This document shows, one piece after another, positions 4,619-63,483 of a DNA stretch of 64,000 nucleotides. The translations under genes were made by a program, and so were the position numbers. Below the pieces are notes generated by a model that was not told the DNA's origin, ran no database searches, and saw only the letters and a list, made by a program, of their open reading frames with translations. Where the stretch lies: the NCBI GenBank assembly GCA_041658985.1, contig JBAZZC010000002.1:17120-81119 (forward strand). Direction: 5' to 3'. Source of the DNA: Minisyncoccota bacterium (GTDB lineage: Bacteria; Patescibacteriota; Minisyncoccia; Phycocordibacterales; DATDWN01). How positions within the stretch are numbered: the first letter of the stretch is position 1; every line of letters begins with the position of its first letter.

Positions 4619-4747
4619 ACGAGAAAATGTCAAAATAAAGCCAAAACAGTGTGGGGTTGTGACCTTGCATTGTTTTGTGTCTTAATGGTGTGGATAGTTT
4701 ACGGGTAATTACAAATGTTATATAATACATATATTAATATTAAATTA

Positions 4748-4884
4748 ATCCGCACACTAACATTGGTATTGTGTCTTCCGTTGCTACTGTAAGTTATCAA
4801 AGCAGAGTGATGGAAGATAAGGTAGTATAGATACTAAATCTAAACCAGACACAATTGCAACGATACCAATGTTAGTGTGCGGAT
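4748..4884 (+). repeat. Family A element A2: terminal inverted repeats ATCCGCACACTAACATTGGTAT / ATACCAATGTTAGTGTGCGGAT, with internal paired boxes tgtgtct/agacaca and cgttgc/gcaacg.
   Basis: 22-bp perfect terminal inverted repeats. It ends 10 nt before the ATG at 4895. Confidence 0.7.
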
Positions 4885-4894
4885 AAATAAAAAT

Positions 4895-5080: not shown

Positions 5081-5173
5081 AGACCGCTTTGTTTCTTGTG
5101 AGTAAAAAATGAATATGATAGAATACCTTAGACCTTAATTTTACTTGAAATAAGGAAAATTATTATTAACTTC

Positions 5174-5309
5174 ATCCGCACACTAACATTGGTATTGTGT
5201 CTCCTGTTGCTACTGTGAGTTATCAAACAGAGTAGTAGAAGATAAAAAGGTGTAGATACTAAACCTAAACCAGACACAATTGCAACGATACCAATGTTAG
5301 TGTGCGGAT
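5174..5309 (+). repeat. Family A element A3, near-identical to A2.
   Basis: Same terminal inverted repeats and internal boxes. It ends 15 nt before the ATG at 5325. Confidence 0.7.
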
Positions 5310-5324
5310 AAAAAAGATAAAGAT

Positions 5325-6029
5325 ATGGATAAGAACAAAATTATTTCTATCATAGTTGTAGTGGTTGTTGTTTTGGCTGTTGCTGGGTTTTTTATGTTTC
5401 GTGGAGACAAAATAAACAATCCAACAAGTGGTAATCCAGAAAGTGTGGCTACTGTAAACGGAGTAACCATTTCAAAAACAGTTTATGATGCACAACTTAC
5501 TTCAGCAATTTCTTCATACAAGACTCAAGGAATAGATGTAACAAAAGCAGATGAATTGGCTAAAATAAAGACTCAAGTTTTAAATAACCTCATAGACAAT
5601 GAATTAGTCAGTCAGGGTATTGTAAGCAGTGGAATTAAGGTTGATGACGCTGATATTGAAAAACAAATTCAAGATATCATAAAACAAACAGGAGGGGCAG
5701 ATAAGTTCCAAGTAGAACTTACTAAGGCCAATCTTACAGAGGCGCAACTTAGAGATAATATATCTAAGCAACTTACTCTTCAAAAATACTTAGAAGCTAA
5801 TGTAGATGTGAGCAAGATTACAGTAAGTGACACCGAAATTTCAGAGTTCTATAAACAATACAGTGACGCTCAAAAAACAGCTTCTTCTACCACAAAAGTT
5901 CCAGCACTTAAGGAATTAAGTGACCAAATAAAACAACAAATCACATCAAATAAGCAACAAGCTTTAATTAATGATTTTGTTGCTTCCTTACGAAGTAAAG
6001 CTCAAATAACAACATCTACGGCTTTATAG
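5325..6029 (+). CDS. Membrane-anchored SurA N-terminal-domain-like chaperone/PPIase-domain protein.
   Basis: N-terminal TM helix, then VATVNGVTISKTVYDAQL..., typical of the SurA_N/PpiD-like family. Confidence 0.45.
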   Translation: MDKNKIISIIVVVVVVLAVAGFFMFRGDKINNPTSGNPESVATVNGVTISKTVYDAQLTSAISSYKTQGIDVTKADELAKIKTQVLNNLIDNELVSQGIVSSGIKVDDADIEKQIQDIIKQTGGADKFQVELTKANLTEAQLRDNISKQLTLQKYLEANVDVSKITVSDTEISEFYKQYSDAQKTASSTTKVPALKELSDQIKQQITSNKQQALINDFVASLRSKAQITTSTAL

Positions 6030-10123: not shown

Positions 10124-10170
10124 GGTTTAGTTGAAAGTTATAAAGTTCATAAAGTTTATAAAGTAAAACA

Positions 10171-10962
10171 CTACAAATATTTTTGAATATTTTTTTTGTG
10201 CTGTTCGTATGTACTAGCACAATGAATATTTCTGTTTTTGTCGTGCAGATAGTAAAGACAACTGGTCTTTTGGGGATTATATGCTGCTTCTATTGCCGCC
10301 AGACCTGGATTGGCAATAGGGCTTGGGGGCATATCATATATATATGTATTGAAGGGGGAATTGATTTTTTTATCTGCTGAGTTTATTTGTGGCCACCACA
10401 TACTCTCATCACCCTTAGCGTATTGGAGAGTGGCATCAATTTGTAATTTCATTCCCTTAAAAATTCTATTCCAAATAATTCCAGAGACAAGTTTCATATC
10501 ACTTTTACCAGCCGCTTCTCGCTGAATAAGAGAGGCTACAATTAGAGCGGTATTTTCATTTATAACCTTTGTTGATTTGGGTTTTTTTATAGATTCAACT
10601 TTTTTTCTAAACTCGTCTGTCATTGTTTTACTGACCACAACTGGGTCGCTGTCTTTGTGTATTAAATAAGTTTTTGGAAAATACTGTCCCTCAAAACTTT
10701 CTCTGGCATAGGCTAAATGGGCATTAAGAAACTCACCCTTTTTTGTTTCGTCCCAGCCAAAGTTTTTTACTAAAACATTAGCTACTTCTTCTTTTCGAAG
10801 ACCCTCCCCAACTCTAACTATTCTCACAGAAGGATTGGCTAGGTCTCCATAAAAAGATAGGGAAGTAAGTAATGACCAGTCTAGGTTGTAGTGAAACATT
10901 GTTCCCAAAAAGAAAATCAAAGACAACGCAAACAATCCAAATGTATGTCTTAGTTTAAACAT
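10171..10962 (-). CDS. mltG: YceG/MltG-like endolytic transglycosylase, paralog 1.
   Basis: NSPFNTYIYDMPPSPIANPGLAAIEAA is the MltG signature. Confidence 0.65.
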   Translation of the reverse strand: MFKLRHTFGLFALSLIFFLGTMFHYNLDWSLLTSLSFYGDLANPSVRIVRVGEGLRKEEVANVLVKNFGWDETKKGEFLNAHLAYARESFEGQYFPKTYLIHKDSDPVVVSKTMTDEFRKKVESIKKPKSTKVINENTALIVASLIQREAAGKSDMKLVSGIIWNRIFKGMKLQIDATLQYAKGDESMWWPQINSADKKINSPFNTYIYDMPPSPIANPGLAAIEAAYNPQKTSCLYYLHDKNRNIHCASTYEQHKKNIQKYL

Positions 10963-22167: not shown

Positions 22168-22229
22168 TATGATCTAGTAGTAGAAAATGAAAACATCAAT
22201 ATTAACAATATATAATATAAAAAATAATT

Positions 22230-22513: not shown

Positions 22514-23122
22514 ATGTCTCTTTCTACCGAACAAAAATTTGAAAAGATGAAGGAAATTCGCGACGAGCTTTTACATTTTAAAAAATCACCTTTATACACA
22601 TATAGATTAGAAAATAAATATTTTCCTGTGGTGGGAGAGGGAAGTCACAACGCTCGCATTATGTTTATTGGTGAAGCACCGGGAGAAAATGAAGCAAAAA
22701 CAGCTAGACCTTTTTGTGGAAGGTCTGGAAAAGTGCTTGATGAGATGTTAGAGTCAATAAATTTGAATAGAAGTGATGTTTACATAACAAATATAGTAAA
22801 GGACCGTCCACCAGAAAATCGTGACCCAAGTCCAAAAGAAATAAAACTATATGCACCTTTCCTCAATAAACAAATAGAGATAATACAGCCTCGGGTTATC
22901 GCGACTTTGGGTAGATTTTCTATGGTTTATATTTTAGAACTTTTAAAATGTAAAACCCCCATTCTTTCAATTGGGGAAATGCACGGCAAAGAATTTACTG
23001 GTCAGGCTTCTTTTGGCTTGGTAACTGTGGTACCTTTGTATCACCCCGCTGTGGCTTTATATAACGGCAGTAATAAGGGTACGTTACTAGAAGATTTTCA
23101 GATATTAAAGAAATATGTCTAG
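22514..23122 (+). CDS. Uracil-DNA glycosylase, family 4.
   Basis: MFIGEAPGENEAKTARPFCGRSGKVLD...HPA. Confidence 0.8.
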   Translation: MSLSTEQKFEKMKEIRDELLHFKKSPLYTYRLENKYFPVVGEGSHNARIMFIGEAPGENEAKTARPFCGRSGKVLDEMLESINLNRSDVYITNIVKDRPPENRDPSPKEIKLYAPFLNKQIEIIQPRVIATLGRFSMVYILELLKCKTPILSIGEMHGKEFTGQASFGLVTVVPLYHPAVALYNGSNKGTLLEDFQILKKYV

Positions 23123-23293
23123 TAGTAGAAGTCGACACTGTGCTAAAGCACATAAATTGGTGTTAACTTCACTACTAGACTATCCTGTAGTGAAAATGAC
23201 ATCAAGTCCTGTTTTATTTGGTAAAAAGTTTTGTTAAATAAAATTAAAAATTATTATTTATAAATTATTATGTCATTTTCTACTACTGGGATG
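23117..23293 (+). repeat. Composite inter-gene module C1. Hairpin 1 contains the UDG stop codon. Hairpin 2 has arms cctgtagtgaaaATGacat / ATGtcattttctactactgggATG that enclose a 13-codon uORF and the pepF start.
   Basis: Inverted repeats read directly. The module recurs in inverted orientation at 50845-51043 (ftsW->murG). Confidence 0.6.
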
Positions 23294-25072
23294 TCTAAAT
23301 ATAATAATATAAGTGCGAAGCTAACGACAGAATGGAATTTAAAACAGCTGTATAAATCACCAGAAGACCCACAAATTGAAAGGGATTTAATTGTGGCTGA
23401 AAAAGCATATCTGGCCTTTGCTAAAAAGTACAAAACCAATAGCAAATACATGACTTCGGAGGCTAGTTTACTTAGTGCTCTTAGAGGTTATGAAAAAATA
23501 TTAGATATTCCAATTTCAAAGACTTATACGTATTTACATTTAGCCCAAGACCTGGATTCAAAAAACGAAAAAGTCAGGGCAAAAATAAACCTCATCTCAC
23601 AAAGACTGCAAAAAATAGAAAATAATATTTTATTTTTTGAAATTAACCTATCCAAGATTGCACTGAAACACCAGAAACTTTTTCTAAGTAGCAAAAAATT
23701 ACCCAAATACAACTACTTATTAAAGAAAACATTCGAAACTGGAAAGTATGTCTTAACTGAGCTGGAAGAAAAAATCCTATCCTTAAAATCACTTCCTTCA
23801 CATAAACTTTGGACAGATGCCTTTGATAAGGTAGAAAATAAGCAGACTGTAAGGCACAAGGGCAAAGACATTCCTGTATCAGAAGCTGTTTCTATTATTA
23901 GAAATCTAAAGACCCAAACAGAGAGAAAGAAGTTACATGACGCTGTTATGGATAGATATTATGAGATAAGCGAAATGGCAGAAAGTGAACTCAATGCCAT
24001 AGTTACAGATAAAAAAATTAACGACGAATTACGTGGATACAGTAAGGCTTATGACTCCACAATTATGAGGTATGAGAACGATAAAAAAAGTGTTCTAAAT
24101 TTGATAAAGACTATCACAGATAATTTCAACATTGCTCATCGTTTTTATAAAGTTAAAGCTAAAATGCTAAAACTTAAAAGTCTCAATTATTCAGACAGGG
24201 CGGTTGGAGTAGGAAAGACGAAAAGAAAAATATTATTTGATGAATCGTGCGATGTTTTACAAAAGCTTTTTATTTCTATTGACCCAAGGTTTGGTGATAT
24301 TCTAAAAAGCTATCTTACAAATGGTCAGATTGATGCTTATCCTAAGGTTGGTAAAAGAGGTGGGGCATATTGTTCCTCGCATCATAAAGTTCCAACTTTT
24401 GTTTTACTGAACCATACCAACACGTTTGAGTCTCTATCTACTTTTGCTCACGAAATGGGCCATGCAATACATAGTGAATTTTCTAGATCTCAGCCAGTCA
24501 TATATGAAAATTATTCAATTGCAACCGCAGAAGTAGCGAGTACACTTTTTGAATCTTTTTTCTTTTATGACCAGTTTGAAAAATTTTCAAAAGAAGAAAA
24601 AATAGTAGCTCTTCATAACAAAATTCAAGATGATGTTGCAACTATTTTCAGACAAATTGCTTGTTTTAATTTTGAACTAGAAATGCATGAGACGATAAGG
24701 GAGAAAGGTAATATGACCAGGGAAGAACTTGCTGTGTGTATGAATAAACACATGAAAAGTTATCTGGGCAACAAGTTTAAATTAAACGAGATGGACGGGT
24801 ATAACTTTGTCGGATGGTCACACATTAGGTATTTTTTCTACGTTTATTCCTACGGTTTTGGTCAACTTGCAAGTAAGGCTTTATATATGAAATACAAAGA
24901 AGATAAAAAATATATAGAAAAGATAAAACAATTTCTCTCGCTTGGTGGCTCTATGAGTCCAGAGGATATTTTTAAATCAATTGGTGTTGATGTTATTAAG
25001 CCTGATTTTTTCAAGAAGGGGATAGAGAGTATAGAGGAGGATATAAAAATGTTGGAAAAGTTGGTTAAATAA
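23270..25072 (+). CDS. pepF: Oligoendopeptidase F (M3B).
   Basis: HExxH as FAHEMGHAIH; 600 aa. The start may be the ATG at 23291. Confidence 0.85.
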   Translation: MSFSTTGMSKYNNISAKLTTEWNLKQLYKSPEDPQIERDLIVAEKAYLAFAKKYKTNSKYMTSEASLLSALRGYEKILDIPISKTYTYLHLAQDLDSKNEKVRAKINLISQRLQKIENNILFFEINLSKIALKHQKLFLSSKKLPKYNYLLKKTFETGKYVLTELEEKILSLKSLPSHKLWTDAFDKVENKQTVRHKGKDIPVSEAVSIIRNLKTQTERKKLHDAVMDRYYEISEMAESELNAIVTDKKINDELRGYSKAYDSTIMRYENDKKSVLNLIKTITDNFNIAHRFYKVKAKMLKLKSLNYSDRAVGVGKTKRKILFDESCDVLQKLFISIDPRFGDILKSYLTNGQIDAYPKVGKRGGAYCSSHHKVPTFVLLNHTNTFESLSTFAHEMGHAIHSEFSRSQPVIYENYSIATAEVASTLFESFFFYDQFEKFSKEEKIVALHNKIQDDVATIFRQIACFNFELEMHETIREKGNMTREELAVCMNKHMKSYLGNKFKLNEMDGYNFVGWSHIRYFFYVYSYGFGQLASKALYMKYKEDKKYIEKIKQFLSLGGSMSPEDIFKSIGVDVIKPDFFKKGIESIEEDIKMLEKLVK

Positions 25073-28514: not shown

Positions 28515-28535
28515 GGCACTTTGTGAACACATTTT

Positions 28536-28669
28536 ATCCGCACACTAACTTTAGTATTATCTCTCCGGTTGCTTCTATGGTTGGTTAGATAAAGTAACAG
28601 TAAAAAATAAGTGTGAATAGTAAATCTGTGTTTGACATAATGCAACGATATTAAAGTTAGTGTGCGGAT
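28536..28669 (+). repeat. Family A element A4 (variant arms ATCCGCACACTAACTTTAGTAT / ATATTAAAGTTAGTGTGCGGAT).
   Basis: Terminal inverted repeats with compensating changes on both arms relative to A2/A3. Confidence 0.65.
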
Positions 28670-28711
28670 GAATTTGCATAAACAAACTCATTTACGTTAC
28701 AATAAGGAGGA

Positions 28712-28820
28712 AATGAATCCCGTACGAAGTTTATGTATTATCGTTGTAATGGGATGAATGTTTAATTATTAACTAATTTAAGTATAAGGTGTACATAACA
28801 CATTTACTTCGTACGGGATG
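28712..28820 (+). promoter_or_regulatory. Family B leader, copy B1: AAGGAGG SD, a 14-codon uORF (MNPVRSLCIIVVMG, 28713-28757), and a long hairpin whose 3' arm (acttcgtacgggAUGa) contains the start codon of the gene at 28818.
   Basis: 14-bp perfect complementarity between uORF codons 2-6 (AAUCCCGUACGAAGU) and the region including the downstream AUG. Confidence 0.55.
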
Positions 28821-30197
28821 AAAAAAAAGATTGTTCAAGATGTTATTCCTCCTAAAAAAACTATTCGCAATGTAGAATTGTTGTATAGAGCAAAACGTTC
28901 CGAGAAAATACCCAAAGAGGTAGTAAAACAAAATATTCCAGTTATACCAGAAGTTTCCGAATCAAATTCAACATCAAACACCGAAACCTTTTCCGAAACT
29001 GAAAATTTTTCTTATAAATATGAGTACGATGAACCGGTAAGACATTCAAAAAAAATCTTGTATGTTTCTGTTGTCTTGTTTGTCCTGGCCTTATCTTTTG
29101 GTATATCAGCATTATTTAAAAGTGCAGAAATACGCATTATACCCAGGAGTGAGATTAGCTCTATAGATGAGAATTTTAAAGCCCTAAAAAATCTTTCGAC
29201 AAACGGCTTAGGTTTTCAGACCGTGACAACCACAAAAGATATTGAAAAGACAGTATCGGCAACAGACGAAGAACAAGTTGAAAAGAAGGCCATTGGCAAA
29301 ATTGTTGTTTATAATAATTATAGTGTTCAACCACAGGCACTAGTAAAGACAACAAGATTTGAAACCCCAGATGGGCTTGTCTTTCGGACAGTAGAGGACA
29401 TAACTGTCCCGGGGATACAAATCAAGAGTGATAAGGCTGTTGCTGGAAGCATAGAGGTTGGAGTAGAAGCAGATAAGCCCGGACCAAAATATAATATTGG
29501 GTTGAAAGATTTTTCTATTGCCGGTTTCAAGGGTACTCCAAAATATACAAAGATTTATGGTAGGTCAAGAACAGAAATGTCTGGCGGTTTTGTGGGAACA
29601 CAAAAGACCGTAAGTAAGGAAACTATAAATAAAATTGATGAAGAAATAAAGGAACTTCTAAAAACTTCTCTTTCAAAAGATATTATTTCGCAGATACCAG
29701 AAAATTTTGTGTTATACCAAAACAGTACTTCCTTTAAATTTGAACCAATTACTCAAATCAATGTCACCACAGAGGAGAGTGGTACTACAAACACAATAAT
29801 TTTAAAGAAAAAAGGTTCTATAAGTGCCATTATCTTTGATAAAGGTTCTCTTTCTAGGGCAATAGTTAGTAAGATTTTACCTGATGTGGCAAGTGATATA
29901 ATTAAAATAACCAATCTTGAGAGTTTAAATTTTACTTTTCAATCAGAAACTCAATTTAATCCAAATACTGATACTTTTCTTAATTTTAACCTAAAAGGAG
30001 AAGCTAATTTCCAATGGGTTTTTGACGAAAATAAACTCAAATTTGAGCTCTTAGGAATGTCAAAAAATAATGCAATAACTATAATCAGTAAATACGACAC
30101 AATAAAAGAAGCAAAAATTGAAACCCATCCTTTCTGGAATAAGACCATTCCAAAAGATTCTAATAAAGTTACACTTATAAACACTCTGGCAAAATAA
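28818..30197 (+). CDS. Hypothetical secreted/membrane-anchored protein, 459 aa.
   Basis: ORF with a TM helix near residues 80-100; no recognised motif. Confidence 0.4.
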   Translation: MKKKIVQDVIPPKKTIRNVELLYRAKRSEKIPKEVVKQNIPVIPEVSESNSTSNTETFSETENFSYKYEYDEPVRHSKKILYVSVVLFVLALSFGISALFKSAEIRIIPRSEISSIDENFKALKNLSTNGLGFQTVTTTKDIEKTVSATDEEQVEKKAIGKIVVYNNYSVQPQALVKTTRFETPDGLVFRTVEDITVPGIQIKSDKAVAGSIEVGVEADKPGPKYNIGLKDFSIAGFKGTPKYTKIYGRSRTEMSGGFVGTQKTVSKETINKIDEEIKELLKTSLSKDIISQIPENFVLYQNSTSFKFEPITQINVTTEESGTTNTIILKKKGSISAIIFDKGSLSRAIVSKILPDVASDIIKITNLESLNFTFQSETQFNPNTDTFLNFNLKGEANFQWVFDENKLKFELLGMSKNNAITIISKYDTIKEAKIETHPFWNKTIPKDSNKVTLINTLAK

Positions 30198-30758: not shown

Positions 30759-30799
30759 CGAAATAGCCAATGTTCTGCTACTATGTAGCTCGTTGATTA

Positions 30800-30937
30800 A
30801 TCCGAACACCAACTTTAGTATTGTGTCTTCCGTTGCTTCTTTTTATAAGTAATTAGCGGATTCAGTCAAGGTATAGATTTGGTTAGTAAATCTATATTTT
30901 GGACACAGTGCAACGATACTAAAGTTGGTGTTCGGAT
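30800..30937 (+). repeat. Family A element A5 (variant arms ATCCGAACACCAACTTTAGTAT / ATACTAAAGTTGGTGTTCGGAT); ends 9 nt before the infA ATG.
   Basis: Terminal inverted repeats with double compensatory changes. Confidence 0.65.
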
Positions 30938-30946
30938 AAAATTGTA

Positions 30947-31168: not shown

Positions 31169-31171
31169 CAA

Positions 31172-31279
31172 AATGAATCCCGTACGAAGTTTATGTATAT
31201 AGTCGTAAAGGGATAGGGGTTTAATTATTAGTTAATTCAAGTATAGAGTGTAGAAACACATTTACTTCGTAACGGGATG
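31172..31279 (+). promoter_or_regulatory. Family B leader, copy B2: a 9-codon uORF (MNPVRSLCI, 31173-31202) begins 5 nt after the infA stop. The hairpin 3' arm (acttcgtaacgggAUGa) contains the rpmJ start codon.
   Basis: Same architecture and near-identical sequence to B1. Confidence 0.55.
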
Positions 31280-31393
31280 AAAGTAAAATCATCAGTAAAA
31301 AAGATTTGTTCCCAGTGTAAAGTAGTCCGCAGAAAGGGCTATGTGTATGTAATATGTAAGGCTAACGCTCGACACAAACAGCGTCAAGGATAG
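31277..31393 (+). CDS. rpmJ: Ribosomal protein L36 (not in the supplied ORF track).
   Basis: [38 protein letters not shown], 38 aa. Confidence 0.85.
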
Positions 31394-34064: not shown

Positions 34065-34412
34065 ATGAATCATCATAAAAAAGCCAGAAAATTTGGACGA
34101 GTAAAAAAAGTAAGAGATGCCCTACTCAAATCTCTAGCTCTTTCCCTTGTTCTGAAGGGTAAAATCAAAACAACAGATGCAAAAGCCAGAGAACTTCGTC
34201 CGTTTGTGGAGAAGTTGGTGACATCAGGCAGGTCTAACAATGTGGCAACACGCAGGTCTCTAGTTGCAAAAATTGGCAGTATTGGGGCAAAGAAAATAAT
34301 TAGTGAATTGTCTCCAAAATATGCAAAAGTATCTGGAGGATACACAAGAATAACAAAGTTACCAGCAAGAGTAAGCGATGGTAGTCTAATGGCTGTAATC
34401 GAATTCGTATAA
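34065..34412 (+). CDS. rplQ: Ribosomal protein L17.
   Basis: HHKKARKFGRVKKVRDALLKSLALSLV... Confidence 0.85.
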   Translation: MNHHKKARKFGRVKKVRDALLKSLALSLVLKGKIKTTDAKARELRPFVEKLVTSGRSNNVATRRSLVAKIGSIGAKKIISELSPKYAKVSGGYTRITKLPARVSDGSLMAVIEFV

Positions 34413-34448
34413 CTTTATGGACTTTACAGACTTTTAACTTTAAGACTT

Positions 34449-35642: not shown

Positions 35643-35673
35643 AGGAAAACCGCCAGTCGTGCTGGGCTGGCGG
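35643..35673 (-). terminator. Minus-strand intrinsic terminator CCGCCAG-cccagcacga-CUGGCGG followed by UUUUCC, serving the small ORF 35704..35955.
   Basis: 7-bp GC stem plus a T-run on the minus strand; near-identical copy at 36172-36204. Confidence 0.6.
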
Positions 35674-35703
35674 AATTCCGCACAGCGCCACGATGGCGGT
35701 GTG

Positions 35704-36171: not shown

Positions 36172-36204
36172 GGAAAAACCGCCAGTCGTGCTGGGCTGGC
36201 GGAA
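36172..36204 (-). terminator. Minus-strand intrinsic terminator, duplicate of the one at 35643-35673.
   Basis: Same CCGCCAG...CUGGCGG stem plus T-run. Confidence 0.6.
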
Positions 36205-36234
36205 TTCCGCACAGCGCCACGATGGCGGTTGTTG

Positions 36235-42144: not shown

Positions 42145-43245
42145 ATGAAATCAAAAATATTTTTAGTTTTCACTCTAATTTTATTTCTAGTTGTTTTTAC
42201 GACAAATCTCAACGCTTCTACCACCATTAGTACAAATATAAATACAGGAGGTTCGCTGACAGTTAGTAGCACAGGTATTTTTGCTGGGAATGTTGGTATT
42301 GGCACAACCACTCCTGCAACTTCGCTTAGTATAGTCGCTACCCCATCAACGACTAGTTATGTAGATGGTATAGCCACAACTATTTATCCTGCTAATCTTT
42401 TAAGTATTACCGATACCACTGTTTCTGCTGTAAGGAATGCCGGTAGTCTTATTGATTATATCGCCAATCCTCCATCTAATCCTGGTGCTAAAAGATATTA
42501 TGGTCAGGAAGTTACATTATCAACACCCTCAAGCAATGAACAGAGTATGACGTCAGCTTCTTTGACAGGTATCTTTTTAAATGCTTATCATCAAGGTTCT
42601 GGGAGTATATCAAACGTAACTAGTCTTAATGGAACCGCAACTGTTTCTGGAAGTGGGAATGTGGTGGCTGTAAATGGACTTTCTGGAACCGCAACTGTTT
42701 CTGGAAGTGGGAATGTGACTTCTTCTGCAAATGGTCTTACTGGAACCGTAACTTTTACTGGAAACGGTACAAAAGTAACCGCAAGAGGAGTATTTGCTAC
42801 GTTAGTTAATACTGGCTCTGGCACAATAACAAATCTTATCGGAAATGATTTAACGGTAGTTAGTACTGGAGGAACGATAACTAACCTTTATGGTTTTAGG
42901 TTTGATCCTTTATCTAGCTCCTCAGGCACAATTAATAATACTTATGGTTTTTATGTGGGTGATATAACTTCAGGCACCCAAGCTAATACCCCATATTCCT
43001 TTTACGCCTCTGACGCTGGGGCATATAATTACTTTGCCGGCAATACTGGTATCGGGACAACTACCCCACAGACTAAACTTCATGTTTCCTCTGGTGCAAG
43101 TGCCACGACCACAGTAACTGTAGGAGAACTTGGACTGACTACTAGTAAGGCATGTGTTAATATGAATAGAGACGATGGAAATCCAGCAAGTTTCTTTATA
43201 AATGCTGCTGGAACCATAGTTGTTGAACTTAATTATTGTAGATAA
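42145..43245 (+). CDS. Secreted surface protein, family member 1 (signal/anchor, GNVGIGTTTP-type repeats, variable Gly/Ser/Thr-rich core, conserved C-terminal module ending NYCR).
   Basis: N- and C-terminal regions are near-identical at DNA level to 43993..45147. Confidence 0.6.
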   Translation: MKSKIFLVFTLILFLVVFTTNLNASTTISTNINTGGSLTVSSTGIFAGNVGIGTTTPATSLSIVATPSTTSYVDGIATTIYPANLLSITDTTVSAVRNAGSLIDYIANPPSNPGAKRYYGQEVTLSTPSSNEQSMTSASLTGIFLNAYHQGSGSISNVTSLNGTATVSGSGNVVAVNGLSGTATVSGSGNVTSSANGLTGTVTFTGNGTKVTARGVFATLVNTGSGTITNLIGNDLTVVSTGGTITNLYGFRFDPLSSSSGTINNTYGFYVGDITSGTQANTPYSFYASDAGAYNYFAGNTGIGTTTPQTKLHVSSGASATTTVTVGELGLTTSKACVNMNRDDGNPASFFINAAGTIVVELNYCR

Positions 43246-43271
43246 GTATTTATTTTAATCATTATATAGAT

Positions 43272-43976
43272 ATGAATAAAAATTTTTTCTTACTTAGTGT
43301 ATCATTTCTGTTTATCACTATTTTTATTTCCACAAGTCTTTATGCTTCAACCACCATCAGTACAGATATAAATACAGATGGAAATATCAGTATCGGGACA
43401 ACTACTCCATGGGCAATGTTTAGTGTGAATCCGAACGGAATTGGTAATGGTCCAGAGTTTGCAATCGGGTCATCAAGTGCAACGCACTTGGTAGTAACTA
43501 ATTCAGGCAACGTCGGCATCGGAGTGACGAGTCCATTGTCTAAGTTAAGTGTTGGTGGAGCAGGATTAGCCGGTGCAGCTATCTATGGCGGCGGTAACAC
43601 CTACGGTGTGGATGGTGTTGGTACAGCGTATGGTGGTCTCTTTACTGGTACTGCAGGTATTGGTGTATATGGCAGTGGTACTACATATGGTGTTTATGGT
43701 AATGGTGCTGGTTCTGGTGTCGGTGGATATTTTAGCTCTTTTTCTGGCTATGCCTTAATAACAAACAGTGGCAACGTCGGAGTTGGAACAACTACCCCCC
43801 AGACTAAACTTCATGTTTCCTCTGGTGCAAGTGCCACAACTACAGTAACTGTAGGAGAACTTGGACTGACTACTAGTAAGGCATGTGTTAATATGAATGC
43901 ATCAGATGGTTCGGCCGTCAGTTTTTATTTTAATGCAGCACATGCAATGGTAATTGAGTCAAATTACTGTCGTTAA
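43272..43976 (+). CDS. Secreted surface protein, family member 2 (short; shares the signal and C-terminal module).
   Basis: C-terminal ...GNVGVGTTTPQTKLHVSSGASATTTVTVGELGLTTSKACVNMN...NYCR. Confidence 0.55.
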   Translation: MNKNFFLLSVSFLFITIFISTSLYASTTISTDINTDGNISIGTTTPWAMFSVNPNGIGNGPEFAIGSSSATHLVVTNSGNVGIGVTSPLSKLSVGGAGLAGAAIYGGGNTYGVDGVGTAYGGLFTGTAGIGVYGSGTTYGVYGNGAGSGVGGYFSSFSGYALITNSGNVGVGTTTPQTKLHVSSGASATTTVTVGELGLTTSKACVNMNASDGSAVSFYFNAAHAMVIESNYCR

Positions 43977-43992
43977 TTTTATATTAATAAAC

Positions 43993-45147
43993 ATGAATAC
44001 CAAGAGAATTTATTTTATAGTTTTAGGTGTGTTTTTGTTTGTTACTATTTTTATTTTCACAAGTCTTTATGCTTCTACCACCATTAGTACAAATATAAAT
44101 ACAGGAGGTTCGCTGACAGTTAGTAGCACAGGTATTTTTGCTGGGAATGTTGGTATTGGCACGACTACCCCTGCAACTTCACTCAGTATAGTCGCTACCC
44201 CATCAACCACTAGTTATGTAGATGGAATAGCCTCAACTTATTACCCCACAAATCTTTTAAGTATTACTGATACCGCTGTTTCTGCTGTAAATAATACTGG
44301 TATCCTTATTGACTATATAGTTAATCCTTCATCTAATCCTGGCAGTAAAACTTATAGAGGCCAGGTAATTACACTATCAACACCTTCAAGCAATGAACAG
44401 AGTGTGGCGTCTGCTTCTTTGAGAGGTATCCAATCAAATGTTAAACATCAAGGTTCTGGAAATTTATCAAGTTTAATAGGCATAACACTTAATGCAGATT
44501 TCACTGGTTCAGGCACTATTGCGAACCAATATGGTACTAGTGGAAGTATAACCGTTACTGGGAGTGGAAATGTGACAAATCTATATGGCAATGCTTTTTC
44601 AGAAACCGTTACTGGGAGTGGAAATATAAGCAATCTTAAAGGAGAATCAATCACAATAACTCATACTGGTAATGGGAATGTAACAACTCTATCAGGAACT
44701 CTTACCATAATAACTCATACTGGCTCTGGCACAATAACATCATTTGATGGAAGTAGATTAACTCTAGTTAATACTGTCGGGACAATAAACACTGCTTATG
44801 GTTTTAGATTTGAAAGTTTGACTGGTGCAGGCACAGTTGGTAACACTTATGCATTTTATGTAGGTGATATAACTGCCGGCACGCAAACCAATACCCCATA
44901 TTCCTTTTACGCCTCTGACGCTGGGGCATATAATTACTTTGCCGGCAATACTGGTATCGGGACAACTACCCCCCAGACTAAACTTCATGTTTCCTCTGGT
45001 GCAAGTGCCACAACTACAGTAACTGTAGGAGAACTTGGACTGACTACTAGTAAGGCATGTGTTAATATGAATCAAGCAGATGGCAGTGCCGGAAGTTTTT
45101 ATCTGGCAGGAGGTACTGTAAAAGTTGAAGATAATTATTGTAGATAA
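43993..45147 (+). CDS. Secreted surface protein, family member 3.
   Basis: Same termini as member 1 with a different middle segment. Confidence 0.6.
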   Translation: MNTKRIYFIVLGVFLFVTIFIFTSLYASTTISTNINTGGSLTVSSTGIFAGNVGIGTTTPATSLSIVATPSTTSYVDGIASTYYPTNLLSITDTAVSAVNNTGILIDYIVNPSSNPGSKTYRGQVITLSTPSSNEQSVASASLRGIQSNVKHQGSGNLSSLIGITLNADFTGSGTIANQYGTSGSITVTGSGNVTNLYGNAFSETVTGSGNISNLKGESITITHTGNGNVTTLSGTLTIITHTGSGTITSFDGSRLTLVNTVGTINTAYGFRFESLTGAGTVGNTYAFYVGDITAGTQTNTPYSFYASDAGAYNYFAGNTGIGTTTPQTKLHVSSGASATTTVTVGELGLTTSKACVNMNQADGSAGSFYLAGGTVKVEDNYCR

Positions 45148-48307: not shown

Positions 48308-49666
48308 TTAGGATAGCTTTTTTATTGCTTGATTAATTCGAGAAACTGTTTCATCTCTTCCCATTATATAAATAAGAGTAAATGGGTCTGGGCTTTTGTC
48401 TCTACCGGACATTGCTACTCGAAGTGGCCACAGGACTTCCCCACGACCATTTTGTGTGGCATAATCAAATAAGAGGTTTTTTATTTCTTCTGAACCCAAA
48501 AAAGATTCTTCTGGTGTGTTTTCCAGAACATTTAACACAAATTGTAGGTGTTTTTTGGTTTCTTCTGGTGTTTGGTTTCCTTTCCAAAACAACAAATCTT
48601 TTTCGTATTGTGGGGGACTCCAATAATAATCTAACTCCCCTCCCCTAACCATCTCGTCTATATCTCCCCATTTTGATATGTGGTCAAAAATTATTGGGCA
48701 CAATTTTTGTAGAAATTTTTCATCACCGTTGATTGAGTTATTTTTTAAACGGCTTAAAATTTCTTGGTTTCGTTCACTTTCCGGCATTAATTTCATGTGT
48801 TCTTTATTAAGCCAGTCCAACTTTTCTGGATTAAAAACCCCACCTCCTTTTTGTATCTTTGAGATATCAAATTTTTCTATGAGTTCAGACAAACTAAAAA
48901 CTTCTTGCTCTCCACCAGGATTCCAACCATTTAAGGCCATGAAATTTAGCAGGGCGTCTGGCAAATAACCGAGCCTTTTATATTCAATGGCTGGAAGAAC
49001 CGACTCATCTCGTTTAGATAGTTTGGCCCTTTCTTTGTTTAGGATAAGCGGTAGATGGGCATATATAGGTCTTGGAGCACCTATAGCCTCTTGAATCAAA
49101 ATTTGACGTGCTGTATTTGGTGTATGTTCTTGGCCTCTAATCACATGTGTTATTCCCATTTCAAAATCATCTATGACAGCTGTTAGATGGTACAAAGGTT
49201 CATTGATATCTCGAGCAATAATAAAATCTCCAAGGTCGGTTGTATCTACTGTTATATCTCCTAGAACTAAATCATTAAATGTAATTTTTTTGTTTGGATT
49301 TTTAAAACGAATAACTTCTTCTCTCTGACCCTCTTCCGTTGGTGTTTCCTTAGAGATGTAGGCAAAACCACCCTCGATCATTTTTTGTATGTATTTTTGA
49401 TGAATTTCCAACCTGTCAGATTGTCTAAAAAACAAATCATGTTTTAAGCCAAGCCATTCAAAGAGTTCAAGAAATTCATCCTCATATTCTCTTCTTGACC
49501 TTTCTTTGTCTGTGTCCTCACTTCGTAATATATAAGTTCCGTTATTTTGTCTCGCAAACAAAAAATTATATAAAGCAGAACGAATTCCACCAACATGAAA
49601 ATGGCCAGTTGGAGATGGCGCAAATCTAGTTATTACTTTATTTGTATTATTCATCATTTGTATCAC
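48308..49666 (-). CDS. gltX: Glutamyl-tRNA synthetase.
   Basis: TRFAPSPTGHFHVGGIRSALYNFLFA...KLSKR. Confidence 0.85.
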   Translation of the reverse strand: MIQMMNNTNKVITRFAPSPTGHFHVGGIRSALYNFLFARQNNGTYILRSEDTDKERSRREYEDEFLELFEWLGLKHDLFFRQSDRLEIHQKYIQKMIEGGFAYISKETPTEEGQREEVIRFKNPNKKITFNDLVLGDITVDTTDLGDFIIARDINEPLYHLTAVIDDFEMGITHVIRGQEHTPNTARQILIQEAIGAPRPIYAHLPLILNKERAKLSKRDESVLPAIEYKRLGYLPDALLNFMALNGWNPGGEQEVFSLSELIEKFDISKIQKGGGVFNPEKLDWLNKEHMKLMPESERNQEILSRLKNNSINGDEKFLQKLCPIIFDHISKWGDIDEMVRGGELDYYWSPPQYEKDLLFWKGNQTPEETKKHLQFVLNVLENTPEESFLGSEEIKNLLFDYATQNGRGEVLWPLRVAMSGRDKSPDPFTLIYIMGRDETVSRINQAIKKLS

Positions 49667-49704
49667 TTTATGGACTTTATAAACTTTACAGACTTTTAAC
49701 TATT

Positions 49705-50844
49705 TTACTTCTCATGTTCTAGAGCTATCGCCAAAATCTCTTGTGCTATTAATTTTGCTGAGTCTCTACGTGCAAATTCTTGTGCACATTTTTCCATTTT
49801 TTCTTTTTCTCCTGGTGTCTCAAGAATTCTATCAATTTCTGAAACCAACAAACTTCCCGCTAAATTTTTTTCTTCTATTACAATCGCTGCTCCAGACCTG
49901 GCATATGAATACGCGTTTGTTCTTTGGTCGTGTGATGTTGGCTCCGGAATTGGAATAATTATGGAAGGTTTTCCCCAAGAGGCAATCTCAAAAATAGTTG
50001 ACCCCGCTCTAGAAACTATAAGATTTGCTACACCGGCGGCAGCTCTCAAATTTAATGTGTTTAAATAATCAAATGGTTTATAGCGATTTTTCAGTGGGTT
50101 ACCCTGTAAAACGACATCTCGTGTTTCTTCAATGATTTTTATGTTTTTTCTACCAGTCTGGTGCACGATTTGATACTTCTTTATTAATTCTGGCAATGCA
50201 TCCATTAAGACTTCATTAATAAAAACTGAACCTGTTGAACCCCCTATGACAAAAATGGTTGGGATACCTTCTGTCAGCTCTAATATTTTAAAAGCCCCGA
50301 CAGTTAATGGTTCTTGCACTTCTTTCCTTATTGGGTTTCCCGTATAGGCTACTTTTTCTTTTTTAAAAAATTTTATAGCTTCAGGATATGAAATGGCGAT
50401 GCGACGGGCAAATTTACCAGCCCAGGCGTTTACTTTGCCCGGGGTACTATCTGATTCATGTATAATCACGGGTATTCGTAATATTCTTGCTGCAAAAAGA
50501 GCGGGAAAACTAGCATAACCCCCCTTACCAAAGACGACATCTGGATATATTACAAAAACTCTCCAGAGCGCACCGAGAGAACCAAAAAATATTTTAAATA
50601 AATCAATAAAGTTTAGAAATATGTTAAGTGGAGAAAGATTCCTTCGTATTTTACCAGAATTTACCGCCTCAAAACTTATATTATTTTGAAATAATAAATT
50701 CTCATTATAGGGCTCAGTAGACATATAATAAATCTGAGGCTGAAGAAGATGGTTTTCTTTTACCATTTGGTTAATTTCTTCCACAATAGCAATAATGGGA
50801 TAAAAATGACCCCCAGTACCGCCTCCAGTAAATAATAGTTTCAT
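49705..50844 (-). CDS. murG: MurG (undecaprenyldiphospho-muramoylpentapeptide beta-N-acetylglucosaminyltransferase).
   Basis: MKLLFTGGGTGGHFYP; GT28 fold; sits in the mraY-ftsW-murG order. Confidence 0.8.
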   Translation of the reverse strand: MKLLFTGGGTGGHFYPIIAIVEEINQMVKENHLLQPQIYYMSTEPYNENLLFQNNISFEAVNSGKIRRNLSPLNIFLNFIDLFKIFFGSLGALWRVFVIYPDVVFGKGGYASFPALFAARILRIPVIIHESDSTPGKVNAWAGKFARRIAISYPEAIKFFKKEKVAYTGNPIRKEVQEPLTVGAFKILELTEGIPTIFVIGGSTGSVFINEVLMDALPELIKKYQIVHQTGRKNIKIIEETRDVVLQGNPLKNRYKPFDYLNTLNLRAAAGVANLIVSRAGSTIFEIASWGKPSIIIPIPEPTSHDQRTNAYSYARSGAAIVIEEKNLAGSLLVSEIDRILETPGEKEKMEKCAQEFARRDSAKLIAQEILAIALEHEK

Positions 50845-51043
50845 CCCAGTAGTAGAAAATGACATCGCTCTGCGAGCTGACAATCTTTTTCTATATTATA
50901 TCCACTAAATTTCGACTTATTCATCGTATGTTTTATTTATTTGGTTATTAATGTCATTTACACTACTGGGTTAATCCCGTAGTGAAGTTGGTATCTAGAC
51001 CTACATGCACTTTAGTGCAATGCCGACTTCTACTATCGGGATT
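50845..51043 (-). repeat. Composite inter-gene module C2 (inverted orientation relative to C1). One hairpin (aatcccgatagtagaagt...acttcactacgggatt) overlaps the ftsW stop. A second hairpin (cccagtagtgtaaATGacat...ATGtcattttctactactgggATG) encloses a 6-codon uORF and the murG start.
   Basis: Inverted repeats read directly; homologous to the module at 23117-23293. Confidence 0.6.
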
Positions 51044-60134: not shown

Positions 60135-61121
60135 TTATCTGCAAGTATTGCTCTCCACAACCATCGTTGTTCCTACAAAATAAAATGAAATATCTGTTCC
60201 GACAGTGTTTTTTGTGTTGAAACATGCGTAGCTTGTTGCTGAACCTAATTCCCCGACGTTTATTGTAGTTGTGGCACTTGCACCAGAAGTTACGTGAAGT
60301 TTACTTTGTGGGGTTGTGGTGCCAATACCGACGTTGCCACCGTCAAGGATACTAAAAATTGTTGAACCATTATCCTGTGCTAAAAAAATTGGTGAGGTCT
60401 GAGAACCGTTATTGGCAATTAATGCTGCGGAAGTAAATGTCGGGGTGGTGTTTTGCAAGCCAAAATATCCGCCAACTTGGATTGGAGATGTAACGGCGGT
60501 ATTAAGAGCAACCCCCATCACAGCAACATTTGTGGCAGAGTCTTTGGCTACTATAGACTTACTACCCACCCCTATATTTAAAATACCACCGACGGCTTCT
60601 GTAAATACTCCCAAATTAAGACCCGTCCCAGTTCCTACGGCTGCACTATAAAGTCCCAGATTACCAAAAGGAGTACCAGTAGATACACTAATGCGTAAAT
60701 TGTTAGTAGTATTACTTACACTGTTTAAGCTTACAGTTCCTATTGTGTTACTTGAAGTAACAGAAGCTGCATTGATGCTTGTATAAAGTCCCCATTGGCC
60801 ACTTGTAGCAGAAGTATTGGGAGTTATGTTAAATCTAACAGCAGAAGTATTAGTTGTCTGGGTGGGAAAAGTTCCAGTAACATTCAGCCAATTCTCAGTT
60901 CCGTCTGTAGCAAGAGAACCGCCAGTAAGTAAAAGTTGATTACCGTCACCTTGAATTTCCAATTTTGCCCCAGGCGTTGCTGTCCCGATACCGACATTAC
61001 CATCCGTTATTATATTTGTACTGATAGTGGTAGAAGCGTAAAGACTTGTTGAAACAAAAATAATTACAGATAAAAACAACGAATAAAACAAAGTTTTATT
61101 GTTACTAAGGTTTGTAATCAT
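60135..61121 (-). CDS. Secreted surface protein, family member 4 (minus strand).
   Basis: STSLYASTTISTNI..., GNVGIGTTTPQSKLHVTSGASATTTINVGELG...CR, same family as 42145-45147. Confidence 0.55.
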   Translation of the reverse strand: MITNLSNNKTLFYSLFLSVIIFVSTSLYASTTISTNIITDGNVGIGTATPGAKLEIQGDGNQLLLTGGSLATDGTENWLNVTGTFPTQTTNTSAVRFNITPNTSATSGQWGLYTSINAASVTSSNTIGTVSLNSVSNTTNNLRISVSTGTPFGNLGLYSAAVGTGTGLNLGVFTEAVGGILNIGVGSKSIVAKDSATNVAVMGVALNTAVTSPIQVGGYFGLQNTTPTFTSAALIANNGSQTSPIFLAQDNGSTIFSILDGGNVGIGTTTPQSKLHVTSGASATTTINVGELGSATSYACFNTKNTVGTDISFYFVGTTMVVESNTCR

Positions 61122-62500: not shown

Positions 62501-62502
62501 CT

Positions 62503-63483
62503 CTAGTATAATTTAACTCCTATTGCTTCCCTAACCTGTTCCATCTTGTGTTCTGCTTTTAATTTTGCTCTTTTGCCTCCTTCTTTCAAAACATCCAAGA
62601 CAAAATCTGTATCATGGGCTAATTGCTCTCTTTTGTCTCGTAGGGGTGCAATGAAAGTATTTATATTTTTAATAAGCAATTCTTTGGATTCTTTATGACT
62701 TATTCCACCCTTCTCATACTTTTGTCGTAAATCAAACAGCTCATCTGGTTTAGAAAATAATCTGTGCAACTTAAACACGTTGTCCTCTTCTGGATTTCTT
62801 GGCTCACTAACCGGTTTAGAATCTGTGATAATAGACATCACTGCTTTTGTGATTTCTTCCAGTGAAGCAAAAAGTGGAATAGTATTGCCATAACTTTTAC
62901 TCATTTTTCTTCCGTCAGTTCCGGGAATAACAGCTACAGTATCTAGAATTTTTGACTCAGGAAGTTTAAAAATCTCTTGTTTGAAAACAAAATTAAATTT
63001 TTGGGCAGTATCTCTAGCGTATTCAACATGCTGTTTCTGGTCTTGTCCAACGGGCACGACTTCTGTATCGTAAAGCAAAATATCTGCAGCCATAAGCATT
63101 GGGTAATTAAACTTGCCAACGCTTATTTCTTTATTGTTTGCTTCGGCATCTTTAAAAGCATGAGCACGCATGAGAAATGGCATGGTGGTTATGGTATCAA
63201 AAATCCAACATAACTCAGTGTGTTCCGAGACGTCTGATTGCTTAAAAATGATTGATTTTTGTGGGTCTAGCCCTAGAGCAAGATAGTCGGTTGCTAGATT
63301 CAAGATATTTTGTGACATTTCTTCCTTATTTTGAACGGAATTCAAAGCATGATAGTCAACTATCATATAAATAGCGTTGTGACTGTCCTGCATGTCCACA
63401 AACTGCCTAATGGCTCCAAAATAGTTACCGATGTGTAGGCTGCCACTTGGTTGTATTCCAGAAAGTAAAGTTTTTTTAGTCAT
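62503..63483 (-). CDS. trpS: Tryptophanyl-tRNA synthetase.
   Basis: LLSGIQPSGSLHIGNYFGAI (HIGH), KMSKS; likely start at the ATG at 63483. Confidence 0.85.
   Translation of the reverse strand: MTKKTLLSGIQPSGSLHIGNYFGAIRQFVDMQDSHNAIYMIVDYHALNSVQNKEEMSQNILNLATDYLALGLDPQKSIIFKQSDVSEHTELCWIFDTITTMPFLMRAHAFKDAEANNKEISVGKFNYPMLMAADILLYDTEVVPVGQDQKQHVEYARDTAQKFNFVFKQEIFKLPESKILDTVAVIPGTDGRKMSKSYGNTIPLFASLEEITKAVMSIITDSKPVSEPRNPEEDNVFKLHRLFSKPDELFDLRQKYEKGGISHKESKELLIKNINTFIAPLRDKREQLAHDTDFVLDVLKEGGKRAKLKAEHKMEQVREAIGVKLY

Follow-up and report, generated by a model that had tools for sequence, protein, structure and literature searches.

Several kinds of short repeat are known to lie close to bacterial genes. 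The Correia element of Neisseria (CREE/NEMIS) is often found 5' of genes and can carry promoter elements (PMC3184786). The repeats REP2 (CREN) of Neisseria and IR-A of Borrelia, 120-150 bp long, lie directly upstream of open reading frames (ORFs), with a promoter and an ATG fused to the ORF and with two internal stem-loops near the 5' end (PMC3184786). BOX elements of Streptococcus pneumoniae are modular repeats whose sub-units occur in variable combinations (PMC3184786), and REP/REPIN sequences are extragenic, imperfect palindromes that contain GTAG and form inverted doublets (see also PMC3184786). Here we describe a repeat, module C, found in a stretch of 64,000 nucleotides from a Minisyncoccota bacterium (GenBank assembly GCA_041658985.1, contig JBAZZC010000002.1, positions 17,120 to 81,119 of the forward strand), hereafter the window. 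In our opinion, module C probably represents a family of non-autonomous, palindromic mobile elements, similar to MITEs (miniature inverted-repeat transposable elements), of Candidate Phyla Radiation (CPR) bacteria of the Paceibacterota/Zambryskibacteria type. The element sits exactly at the start codon of a gene, with a copy of that ATG at each end of the element as a direct repeat of 3 nt, in some cases 4-7 nt. Loci labelled L or P with a number are sequences from relatives and metagenomes that were compared with the window.

The window holds two such two-hairpin modules of about 175-205 nt, C1 (23115-23293, + strand) between UDG and pepF and C2 (51042-50842, - strand) between ftsW and murG. 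They share the 21-mer CCCAGTAGTAGAAAATGACAT, which occurs exactly twice in the window (23270-23290 on the - strand and 50845-50865 on the + strand), a result reached in 0 of 100 shuffles. Pairwise alignment of C1 and C2 gives three conserved blocks with unrelated sequence between them: block 1 is TAGTAGAAGTCGrCAyTG..CTAAAG..CAT...AACTTCACTAC, block 2 is CCwGTAGTGwAAATGACAT and block 3 is ATGTCATTTTCTACTACTGGGATG. Each module folds as two abutting hairpins, here called E1 and E2, with -59.4 kcal/mol for C1 (z = -8.7 against shuffles) and -60.3 kcal/mol for C2 (z = -6.6). A third copy, a degenerate solo E2, lies upstream of C1. The parts are as follows.

23115-23121, + strand: left direct repeat ATGTCTA of C1, which holds the old pepF start position
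23117-23180, + strand: E1 of C1, the short hairpin GTCTAGTAGT-A-GAAGT...ACTTCACTACTAGAC, in which an A is bulged, with the inner hairpin TGTGC-TAAA-GCACA
23120-23122, + strand: UDG stop TAG, composed of the TA of the left ATGTCTA and the G of the element (window read against the empty site of L052)
23184-23202, + strand: E2 5' arm of C1, CCTGTAGTGAAAATGACAT, paired in the fold with 23270-23290
23203-23269, + strand: E2 interior of C1, AT-rich and degenerate
23270-23290, + strand: E2 3' arm of C1, ATGTCATTTTCTACTACTGGG, with its ATG in the pepF frame (MSFSTTG)
23291-23297, + strand: right direct repeat ATGTCTA of C1, identical with the native pepF start (MSKYNN...)
50974-51042, - strand: E1 of C2, ATCCCGATAGTAGAAGT...ACTTCACTACGGGAT, which covers the ftsW stop TAG 51035-51033 (covariance-model match of 77.2 bits)
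50951-50970, - strand: E2 5' arm of C2, CCCAGTAGTGTAAATGACAT
50866-50950, - strand: E2 interior of C2, with a -35-like ATGAAT (50924-50919), an 18-nt spacer containing GTCGAAATT, and TATAAT (50900-50895)
50877-50867, - strand: mini hairpin GCTC-GCA-GAGC inside the E2 interior of C2
50845-50865, - strand: E2 3' arm of C2, ATGTCATTTTCTACTACTGGG, in the murG frame and followed by the native murG ATG 50844-50842
22169-22229, + strand: degenerate solo E2, composed of ATGA, the 5' arm TCTAGTAGTAGAAAATGAAAACAT, a remnant containing TATAAT, and ATGA, with the 3' arm lost

In both modules the upstream stop lies in the 5' base of hairpin 1, and the downstream ATG follows directly 3' of GGG (...CTACTACTGGG), at 23291 for pepF and 50844 for murG. 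An in-frame ATG 21 nt upstream of both starts gives both proteins the prefix MSFSTTGM. The first-pass annotation, made from the letters alone, had noted the common two-hairpin layout, the stop codon within hairpin 1, the shared MSFSTTGM and the TATAAT inside C2, and all four observations stand. The degenerate E2 lies between an ATP-cone/Mrr gene and an 88-aa MtN3/PQ-loop gene, flush to the ATGA of the latter; this small gene is missing from the position in the relatives L052 and L053.

Orthologous sites point to insertion. At the start of pepF the module is absent from L052 (PepF 83% identical), where UDG and pepF overlap by 8 nt (...AAAAAAT ATGTCTAA AAAAAC) and UDG ends in TAA. The same site is filled in the window, in L050 (95% identical) and in L053 (72%). 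In the window it reads ...AAAT ATGTCTA/G TAGTAGAAG ... CTACTGGG/ATGTCTA AATAT, with slashes at the junctions; given the L052 sequence, the ATGTCTA on both sides of the module means that the overlap region has been duplicated around C1. The murG start is empty in L044/L045 (MurG 84% identical), with 9 nt between the ftsW stop and the murG ATG, and in L046 (79%), with 3 nt. It is filled in the window and in P0014 (79% identical), which has the N-terminal extension and a gap of 147 nt. These comparisons reverse the idea that the close spacing of stop and start is the module's doing: relatives without the module have the two codons overlapping or 3-9 nt apart, and the module lengthens the spacing about 20-fold. 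Since the empty sites already overlap or abut, the module is not needed for coupling, and the close spacing pre-dates it.

A direct repeat with ATG, 3-7 nt long, lies on both sides of 13 of 17 copies, distributed as follows.

ATGA, six copies: L003, L004, L035, L043, L007, L021b
ATGG, one copy: the second copy in L004
ATGT, one copy: C1 (ATGTCTA, confirmed against the empty site)
ATG only, five copies: L014, L021a, L025, L053, L039

The fourth base of the repeat follows the natural start context of the genome, where most genes begin with ATGA. As a separate count, about half of the gene starts in the window read ATGA. At C2, L006, L008 and L009/L010 no clean flanking repeat was seen. In C2, about 20 nt of the former spacer seem to have been lost, with the result that ftsW now ends within the arm. 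Each copy found that contains E2 either abuts a start codon directly or lies within the first codons of a gene.

Such an insertion would leave the neighbouring genes readable. The 5' arm of the module has stops in two of three frames (TAG TAG; TGA), so that a formerly overlapping upstream ORF ends within a few codons, which explains the "embedded stop". The stop of an overlapped or abutted upstream gene is supplied either by the left repeat or by the TAG/TGA triplets of the arm, the right repeat stays the start, and in co-directional contexts the module spans the distance from upstream stop to downstream start. Free of stop codons, the 21-nt arm next to the gene opens with an in-frame ATG, and this ATG can take over as the start codon. 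We take the embedding of stop and start in the hairpins to be, most probably, the trace left by insertion at a start codon which overlapped or abutted an upstream stop. A kept stop, a kept start, a promoter-like core and a spare ATG would make insertion tolerable in a genome that is about 90% coding and has almost no Shine-Dalgarno motifs.

The consequences for the proteins differ between genomes. Among MurG homologs, 118 of 120 lack the extension and their natural start is MKIL(L/F)TGG, while PepF homologs start with MSKK/MSSK...; the native N-termini predicted by the first-pass annotation (MSK.. and MK(I/L)L..) thus agree with those of the homologs. The same annotation held that genuine translation of the extension, conserved as protein, would speak against its linker idea, and in part this has come true. 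In L050, where the native pepF start is mutated to ACG and the preceding GGG to AGG, the ATG of the arm is the only start available, so that the extension must be translated, giving MSFSTTRTSKK. A signal peptide is interrupted by the module in L006 (MKKFLPY / module / ILILVVVVGLF...), and in L008 a 60-nt E2 lies in frame in the N-terminal coding region and is read through; in both, the codon after GGG is ATA and the arm lies within the coding sequence. The same PepF is annotated with 593 aa and with 600 aa in two NCBI records of metagenome-assembled genomes (MAGs). Judged from these reading frames, the 7-residue MSFSTTG extension is an annotation artefact in some genomes and the real N-terminus in others.

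The two hairpins are of one type in two sizes. Both share the termini CCCNGTAGTAGAA...TTCACTACNGGG, of the general form 5'-CCC(N)GTAGT-A-GAA ... TTC-ACTAC(N)GGG-3' with an extrahelical A; variants of the element ends are CCCNGTAGTAGAA...TTCTACTACNGGG and CCCNGTAGTAGAA / TTC(T)ACTACNGGG, lengthened to 21 bp in E2. The outer ends of composites (A and A') match each other perfectly as inverted repeats. E1 measures 31-71 nt and typically has the helix GAAGTTGGYRT/AYRCCAACTTC, followed by a small inner hairpin and an A-rich 3' strand, and its interior is hypervariable among copies. The 16-bp helix of E1 is 94% paired (n = 9 sequences) and five of its pairs vary on both sides, a number reached in 0 of 500 shuffles and by no slid control. 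E2 measures 105-130 nt, with arms of 20-21 nt around an AT-rich interior. The interiors are homologous across genomes and run in the order TGAATAAATT, ATGAAWAAGTCGAAATTA, YATAAT, AATGA and a mini hairpin GCTC-GNA-GAGC beside the gene-proximal arm. A covariance model built from E1 alone, which matches E1 of C1 with 67.5 bits (E = 1.3e-17), also detects both E2 copies of the modules on the opposite strand (50843-50971 on the + strand, 34.9 bits; 23182-23292 on the - strand, 30.9 bits). In composites generally the match to E2 is on the opposite strand, while in solo copies (L004, L035, L003) it is on the sense strand. Hence hairpin 2 in composites is a hairpin of type 1 on the opposite strand. 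The arm with an extra base swaps between solo and composite copies, and the interior is not flipped.

The elements, 31-205 bp overall, contain only incidental short ORFs and no conserved peptide. Tiny upstream ORFs of 13 and 6 codons, which had been noted in the 5' arms of C1 and C2, are indeed present; in other copies the corresponding ORFs have 2 to about 30 codons, again with no conserved peptide. We rejected a functional peptide, given that both these 5'-arm ORFs and an interior ORF beginning MKKSKL vary in length and codons and that some copies lack the ATG. In C2 an ORF of 27 codons in the +1 frame (50924-50842, - strand) begins at an interior ATG, crosses both the mini hairpin and the 3' arm, and ends at a TGA that overlaps the murG ATG (ATGA). 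It is probably incidental, because the TAG in GCTCGTAGAGC closes it in most other copies.

The family is not confined to the window, which comes from a metagenomic contig of 236 kb and whose host, labelled Candidatus Paceibacterota at NCBI, has Zambryskibacteria as its nearest named relatives. The same module occurs in at least 15 other CPR contigs (Paceibacterota/Zambryskibacteria-like), flush with start codons of unrelated housekeeping genes. The exact 21-mer was found in 9 GTDB loci, 8 of them from CPR genomes, and its hosts include Zambryskibacteria, Paceibacterota, Patescibacteria-group MAGs and MAGs labelled Saccharibacteria. A degenerate arm pattern adds metagenome contigs, for about 12 in all, and once chance matches are removed at least 17 independent copies remain. 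The genes directly downstream are all different: pepF, murG, alaS (assigned by eye from its N-terminus), rplN (L14), rpmE (L31), pilC, a DnaX-like clamp-loader subunit, yidC, tsaE, an FKBP isomerase, a glycosyltransferase, a solute-binding protein, an ATP-cone/Mrr protein and two large membrane proteins.

The description of the modules as modular and recombining is supported by the arrangements of these copies. E2 occurs alone (L003, two copies in L004, L035, L043) and with E1 in composites (C1, C2, L006, L007, L009/L010, L014, two copies in L021, L025, L039, L050, L053). It is also nested within an E1-type pair (L005), and E1 is nested in E1 with the compensatory variant arms GTACCAGAG/CTCGGTAC (L021b, L025). 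Three composites stand in tandem in L039, a mini-E1 alone is found in L008 and L076, and L008 also has the short in-frame E2. At least two copies each are present in the window, L004, L021, L008 and L039. Nested, tandem, truncated (22169-22229) and intragenic (L008, L006) copies are signs of mobile DNA, and so is the mini-E1 of L076 (GCCACAGTAGTAGAAC-GAA-GTTCACTACATGGC, L076 positions 5438-5470), which has GCTGTG on both sides. It belongs to the same genome, 7 kb past the window, where it lies between divergent genes or within a 55-aa ORF; it is the only further copy in about 15 kb of source contig beyond the window, a part that also holds a prophage-like island. Since this mini-E1 lies off any start codon, the strict association with start codons may belong to E2-bearing copies, through either targeting or selection.

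Searches elsewhere gave little. Rfam yielded no match for the whole window at the gathering score and only chance-level ones (E of about 1 or more) for both modules at relaxed thresholds. BLAST with C2 found no similar DNA in phage and plasmid collections, and IMG/VR scans with both arms gave no matches; a scan with a 17-mer of E1 gave 21, about the number expected by chance on a rough estimate. A lone exact 21-nt arm, with no partner arm and no AT-rich interior, occurs in otherwise unrelated sequence of a MAG labelled Actinomycetota and two metagenome contigs (L011, L032, L036), and is either a chance match or a relic.

The interior of E2 looks like a portable promoter. It points gene-ward in all of about 13 informative independent copies and contains a sigma-70-like motif ATGAAW-18-YATAAT, with GTCGAAATT in the spacer and the -10 box ending 49-50 nt from the element end. 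At this conserved offset the motif is found in five genomes (C2, L003, L043, L053, L014), and the E2 of L039 has a perfect TTGACA-16-TATAAT. The degenerate E2 of the window has ATGAAA-18-TATAAT, with 10 of 12 matches. In C1 the E2 interior, which agrees to about 95% with its ortholog in L050, has neither the mini hairpin nor the canonical ATGAAW..YATAAT, but only a weak match, TTAAAA-16-TATTAT. In our reading the internal promoter would fire and make the downstream gene transcriptionally independent.

Among about 50 gene starts in the window there are almost no Shine-Dalgarno motifs, and for this reason we dropped the idea that a hairpin brings an upstream, split Shine-Dalgarno sequence to the AUG. 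Many genes of the window have a TATAAT-like -10 box 6-8 nt before the ATG. These boxes suggest that leaderless mRNAs are widespread in this host.

How does module C compare with the systems mentioned at the outset? With MITEs it shares a size under about 400 bp, the lack of a transposase gene, terminal inverted repeats, filled and empty sites, and multiple copies per genome; an ATG-containing repeat of 3-7 nt flanks 13 of the 17 copies, and several copies have none. It resembles the Correia element in being 100-200 bp long and non-coding, with terminal inverted repeats, a long hairpin, a short flanking direct repeat and filled versus empty sites in relatives. Unlike the Correia element, it is flush with the start codon or within the first codons, its flanking repeat holds ATG rather than TA, it consists of two hairpin sub-elements with the same termini, an in-frame ATG is supplied by its terminal arm, it lacks a known parent insertion sequence, and its host is an uncultivated CPR bacterium.

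The functional anatomy of REP2 and IR-A equals that of E1 plus E2. However, REP2 has no terminal inverted repeats and does have a ribosome-binding site, whereas module C has inverted termini of 13-21 bp and no Shine-Dalgarno sequence; moreover, neither REP2 nor IR-A shares its flanking ATG repeats or shows sequence similarity to it. The resemblance to REP2/CREN is functional and does not make module C a member of that family. BOX elements likewise have modular sub-units, but their boxA-boxB-boxC logic, the lack of a link to start codons and the lack of shared inverted termini set them apart. Rickettsia palindromic elements (cited in PMC3184786) are palindromic repeats that can lie in frame inside protein-coding genes and be translated. 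The 60-nt in-frame copy of L008 and the translated MSFSTTG extension of L050 are similar to these, but most copies of module C lie at gene boundaries and there is no sequence relationship. Integron attC sites differ as well: the termini of module C lack the GTTRRRY/RYYYAAC core, and it is flanked by core housekeeping genes instead of cassettes. A putative palindromic mobile element of this kind, associated with start codons and equipped with a portable promoter-like core and a spare ATG, did not turn up among CPR repeat families in the literature that we searched.

In our reading, the element would move by transposition or by another insertion mechanism, and its hairpins would matter mainly at the DNA level, for mobility and palindrome maintenance, rather than for translational coupling. 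A number of points weigh against it. A search of about 550 kb of sequence from partial genomes found neither a transposase nor a recombinase with matching termini, and arm pairs up to 3 kb apart, as an autonomous partner would have, were not found across the loci examined. The length of the flanking repeat is not constant (3 to 7 nt), and at the four loci named above the repeat is missing or doubtful, unlike the fixed duplication of classical DDE transposition. Copy number is low, with two full copies and one remnant in 64 kb. A generic promoter scan showed no orientation bias in this AT-rich DNA, so that only the positional conservation of the one motif is informative and promoter activity is a prediction from sequence. 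Even hosts with protein identities of only about 70% have identical arms, and in orthologous copies pairing is kept by compensatory changes: L009 has GGTAT/ATACC where L010 has GGCAT/ATGCC, G-C has become A-T in the E2 arms of L053, and between the window and L050 there are about 10 pair-preserving transitions in E1, with E2 about 95% identical. Such identity and pairing could reflect selection on the hairpins at the level of the host rather than selfish spread. In a DNA palindrome, compensatory changes can also come from templated correction or from gene conversion by other copies, and therefore they do not prove an RNA function. Finally, the pepF start, the murG start and the UDG 3' end are filled in non-sister lineages, which needs strong targeting, precise excision or an alternative way of spread.

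There is an extended version of the mobile-element explanation, which we regard as unlikely but worth stating. The element would actively home to start codons instead of only surviving at them, and its folded RNA would be skipped, so that ribosomes ending at the left end, coming from the upstream gene or from a 3-codon mini-ORF ATG-ACC-CNG-TAG, would reinitiate at the AUG by the hairpin base. If this were true, module C would be a mobile element with both transcriptional and translational compensation, a bacterial analogue of ribosome shunting, which restores stop/start coupling in a genome without Shine-Dalgarno sequences and adds a promoter.

We are sceptical about a pure RNA linker, in which hairpins bring the upstream stop and the downstream AUG together for termination-reinitiation or a shunt, close to what the first-pass annotation proposed in describing linkers that couple termination to initiation. 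The geometry does invite it: the stop lies at the 5' base of two abutting hairpins and the AUG at their 3' base, both modules fold strongly, compensatory and wobble changes keep pairing in orthologous copies, and in a genome without Shine-Dalgarno motifs internal cistrons need another route of initiation. Further, the left ATG and the arm often make the above 3-codon mini-ORF, ending in the hairpin base, an arrangement that resembles the shunt architecture of the cauliflower mosaic virus 35S RNA. Yet the linker is not supported as a general explanation, since 6 of the 17 copies have no abutting co-directional upstream ORF (L035 has a divergent gene, L003, L014 and L021b lie in terminator or promoter contexts, L005 is another, and L006 is intragenic) and the empty sites already have overlapping or abutting stops and starts. 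Solo E2 copies also stand in co-directional junctions without E1 (L004, L043), and transcripts from the gene-ward promoter-like motif in E2 would miss the 5' arm. Nor is there a strand preference: in E1, G.U versus A.C mismatches number 5 versus 7, and the folding energies of sense and antisense show no consistent difference. Without a sense-strand bias, the covariation of E1 cannot separate RNA function from maintenance of a DNA palindrome. Coupling or shunting would at best be a secondary effect of the insertion.

Similarly doubtful, in our opinion, is a REP/REPIN-like element that moves as single-stranded DNA, mobilised by a RAYT or an IS200-type HUH tyrosine transposase which recognises bulged GTAG hairpins. 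Several features are indeed reminiscent of it: GTAG stands at each hairpin foot with an invariant extrahelical A, the doublet of E1 followed by inverted E2 recalls REPIN organisation, both strands fold equally well, and the mini-hairpins (L021a, L076 and that of E2) have GAA or GNA triloops, which are stable in single-stranded DNA. However, in module C the GTAG is within the stem, not 5' of it; copies are flanked by ATG(N) repeats, while REP/REPINs lack a target duplication; their density is low, 2-3 per 64 kb; and the long AT-rich promoter-like interior has no counterpart. No RAYT gene was identified, and no Y1 transposase gene was seen in the loci examined, which cover partial genomes.

A conserved cis-regulatory RNA of CPR bacteria, similar to a riboswitch or leader and controlling the downstream gene, seems very improbable to us. 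It would account for blocks that are highly conserved across divergent hosts, for the position at gene 5' ends and for the covarying E1 helix. It would not account for presence and absence at orthologous sites of close relatives, for functionally unrelated downstream genes, for nested, tandem and intragenic copies, or for the hypervariable E1 interior, and no Rfam family was matched. An invertible promoter, with the E2 arms as recombination sites of an invertase, would fit inverted repeats of 20-21 bp around an AT-rich segment of about 85-110 bp with TATAAT but is barely credible, given one gene-ward orientation in about 13 independent copies and in the independent assemblies (three of C2, two of C1), no adjacent invertase gene, core housekeeping genes as targets, and the swap of arm asymmetry described above without a flip of the interior.

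Other repeats of the window deserve mention. A cousin family, B, has two copies.

28711-28828, + strand: family B copy 1, with arms (AT)CCCGTACGAAGT...ACTTCGTACGGG, flush to the ATG of a 459-aa gene, with ATGAA on both sides
31171-31287, + strand: family B copy 2, which separates infA from rpmJ; the infA stop TGA is part of the left ATGA, and the rpmJ ATG directly follows ...ACGGG

Family B follows the same logic of placement as module C, with different arms and without the bulge, and the E1 covariance model does not detect its copies. Hairpin 1 of C2 had been taken for a sequence hybrid with this family on account of its ATCCCG...CGGGAT; this is the usual hairpin base in other genomes, and it is C1, with CTAG/CTAG, that deviates. 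Family A comprises four copies of an imperfect palindrome of about 145 nt (ATCCGCACACTAACATTGGTATTGT ... ACGATACCAATGTTAGTGTGCGGAT) at 4744-4888, 5171-5312, 28533-28676 and 30797-30944. The first two, which were read directly, end 5-12 nt before an ATG, and two copies immediately precede copies of family B. Family A probably represents a further mobile palindrome or else a structured leader. Periodic 9-nt repeats ACTTTAnnn (for example ACTTTATGGACTTTACAGACTTTTAACT) occupy intergenic positions by gene ends at 34412-34448, 49638-49710, 62430-62511 and, as reverse complement, 10141-10171; a similar periodic repeat is found in another CPR genome, in the upstream region of L008.

Some gene regions stand apart from the rest. 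The segment 35200-36660 is a GC-richer island with two paralogous small genes on the minus strand, read by eye without annotation, whose strong Shine-Dalgarno sequences (AAGGAGGTG) contrast with the rest of the genome. After each gene come an identical terminator-like repeat of 55 nt (35646-35700, 36175-36229) and the palindrome AATTTGGTACAATATATTGTACCAAATT. This island looks horizontally acquired. At 76-1473 lies a gene for a large serine recombinase of 519 aa (the window begins within it), beside tRNA-Ala (1411-1484) and a GIY-YIG gene, and beyond the window edge follows a run of small hypothetical genes (L075, 10950-16724). The region by tRNA-Ala is probably an integrated prophage or island; its serine recombinase, the only recombinase near module C copies, belongs to that island. 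The segments 42145-45147 and 60135-61121 comprise a cluster of paralogous genes with internal repeats encoding G-N-(V/I/T)-G-I-G-T-T-T-P, for which no Pfam matches are on record, and a related gene on the opposite strand at a distance of 16 kb.

In the phage tRNA arrays of IMG/VR (L054, L057, L058, L060, L062, L064, L067, L068, L071) a conserved stretch, TTGGCAGTAATGCCAACTTCTACTACGGGTATCTTCCGTAGCG, directly follows tRNA-Thr(UGU). We rejected it as a relative of E1, with which it has 20 nt in common in antisense, probably by chance, and none of the architecture; it may be an unannotated small RNA.

What would such a family mean for its hosts? Genomes of CPR/Patescibacteria are tiny, gene-dense and poor in known regulators and mobile elements, and this family shows how mobile DNA can persist in compact genomes without breaking genes. 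Its flush association with start codons appears unusual for bacterial repeats. For annotation the module is a source of systematic artefacts, namely the MSFSTTG extension and spurious ORFs of 40-55 aa. For the organisms themselves it is a possible source of new promoters and operon boundaries, and the family provides a defined sequence handle on the initiation of transcription and translation in organisms without Shine-Dalgarno sequences.

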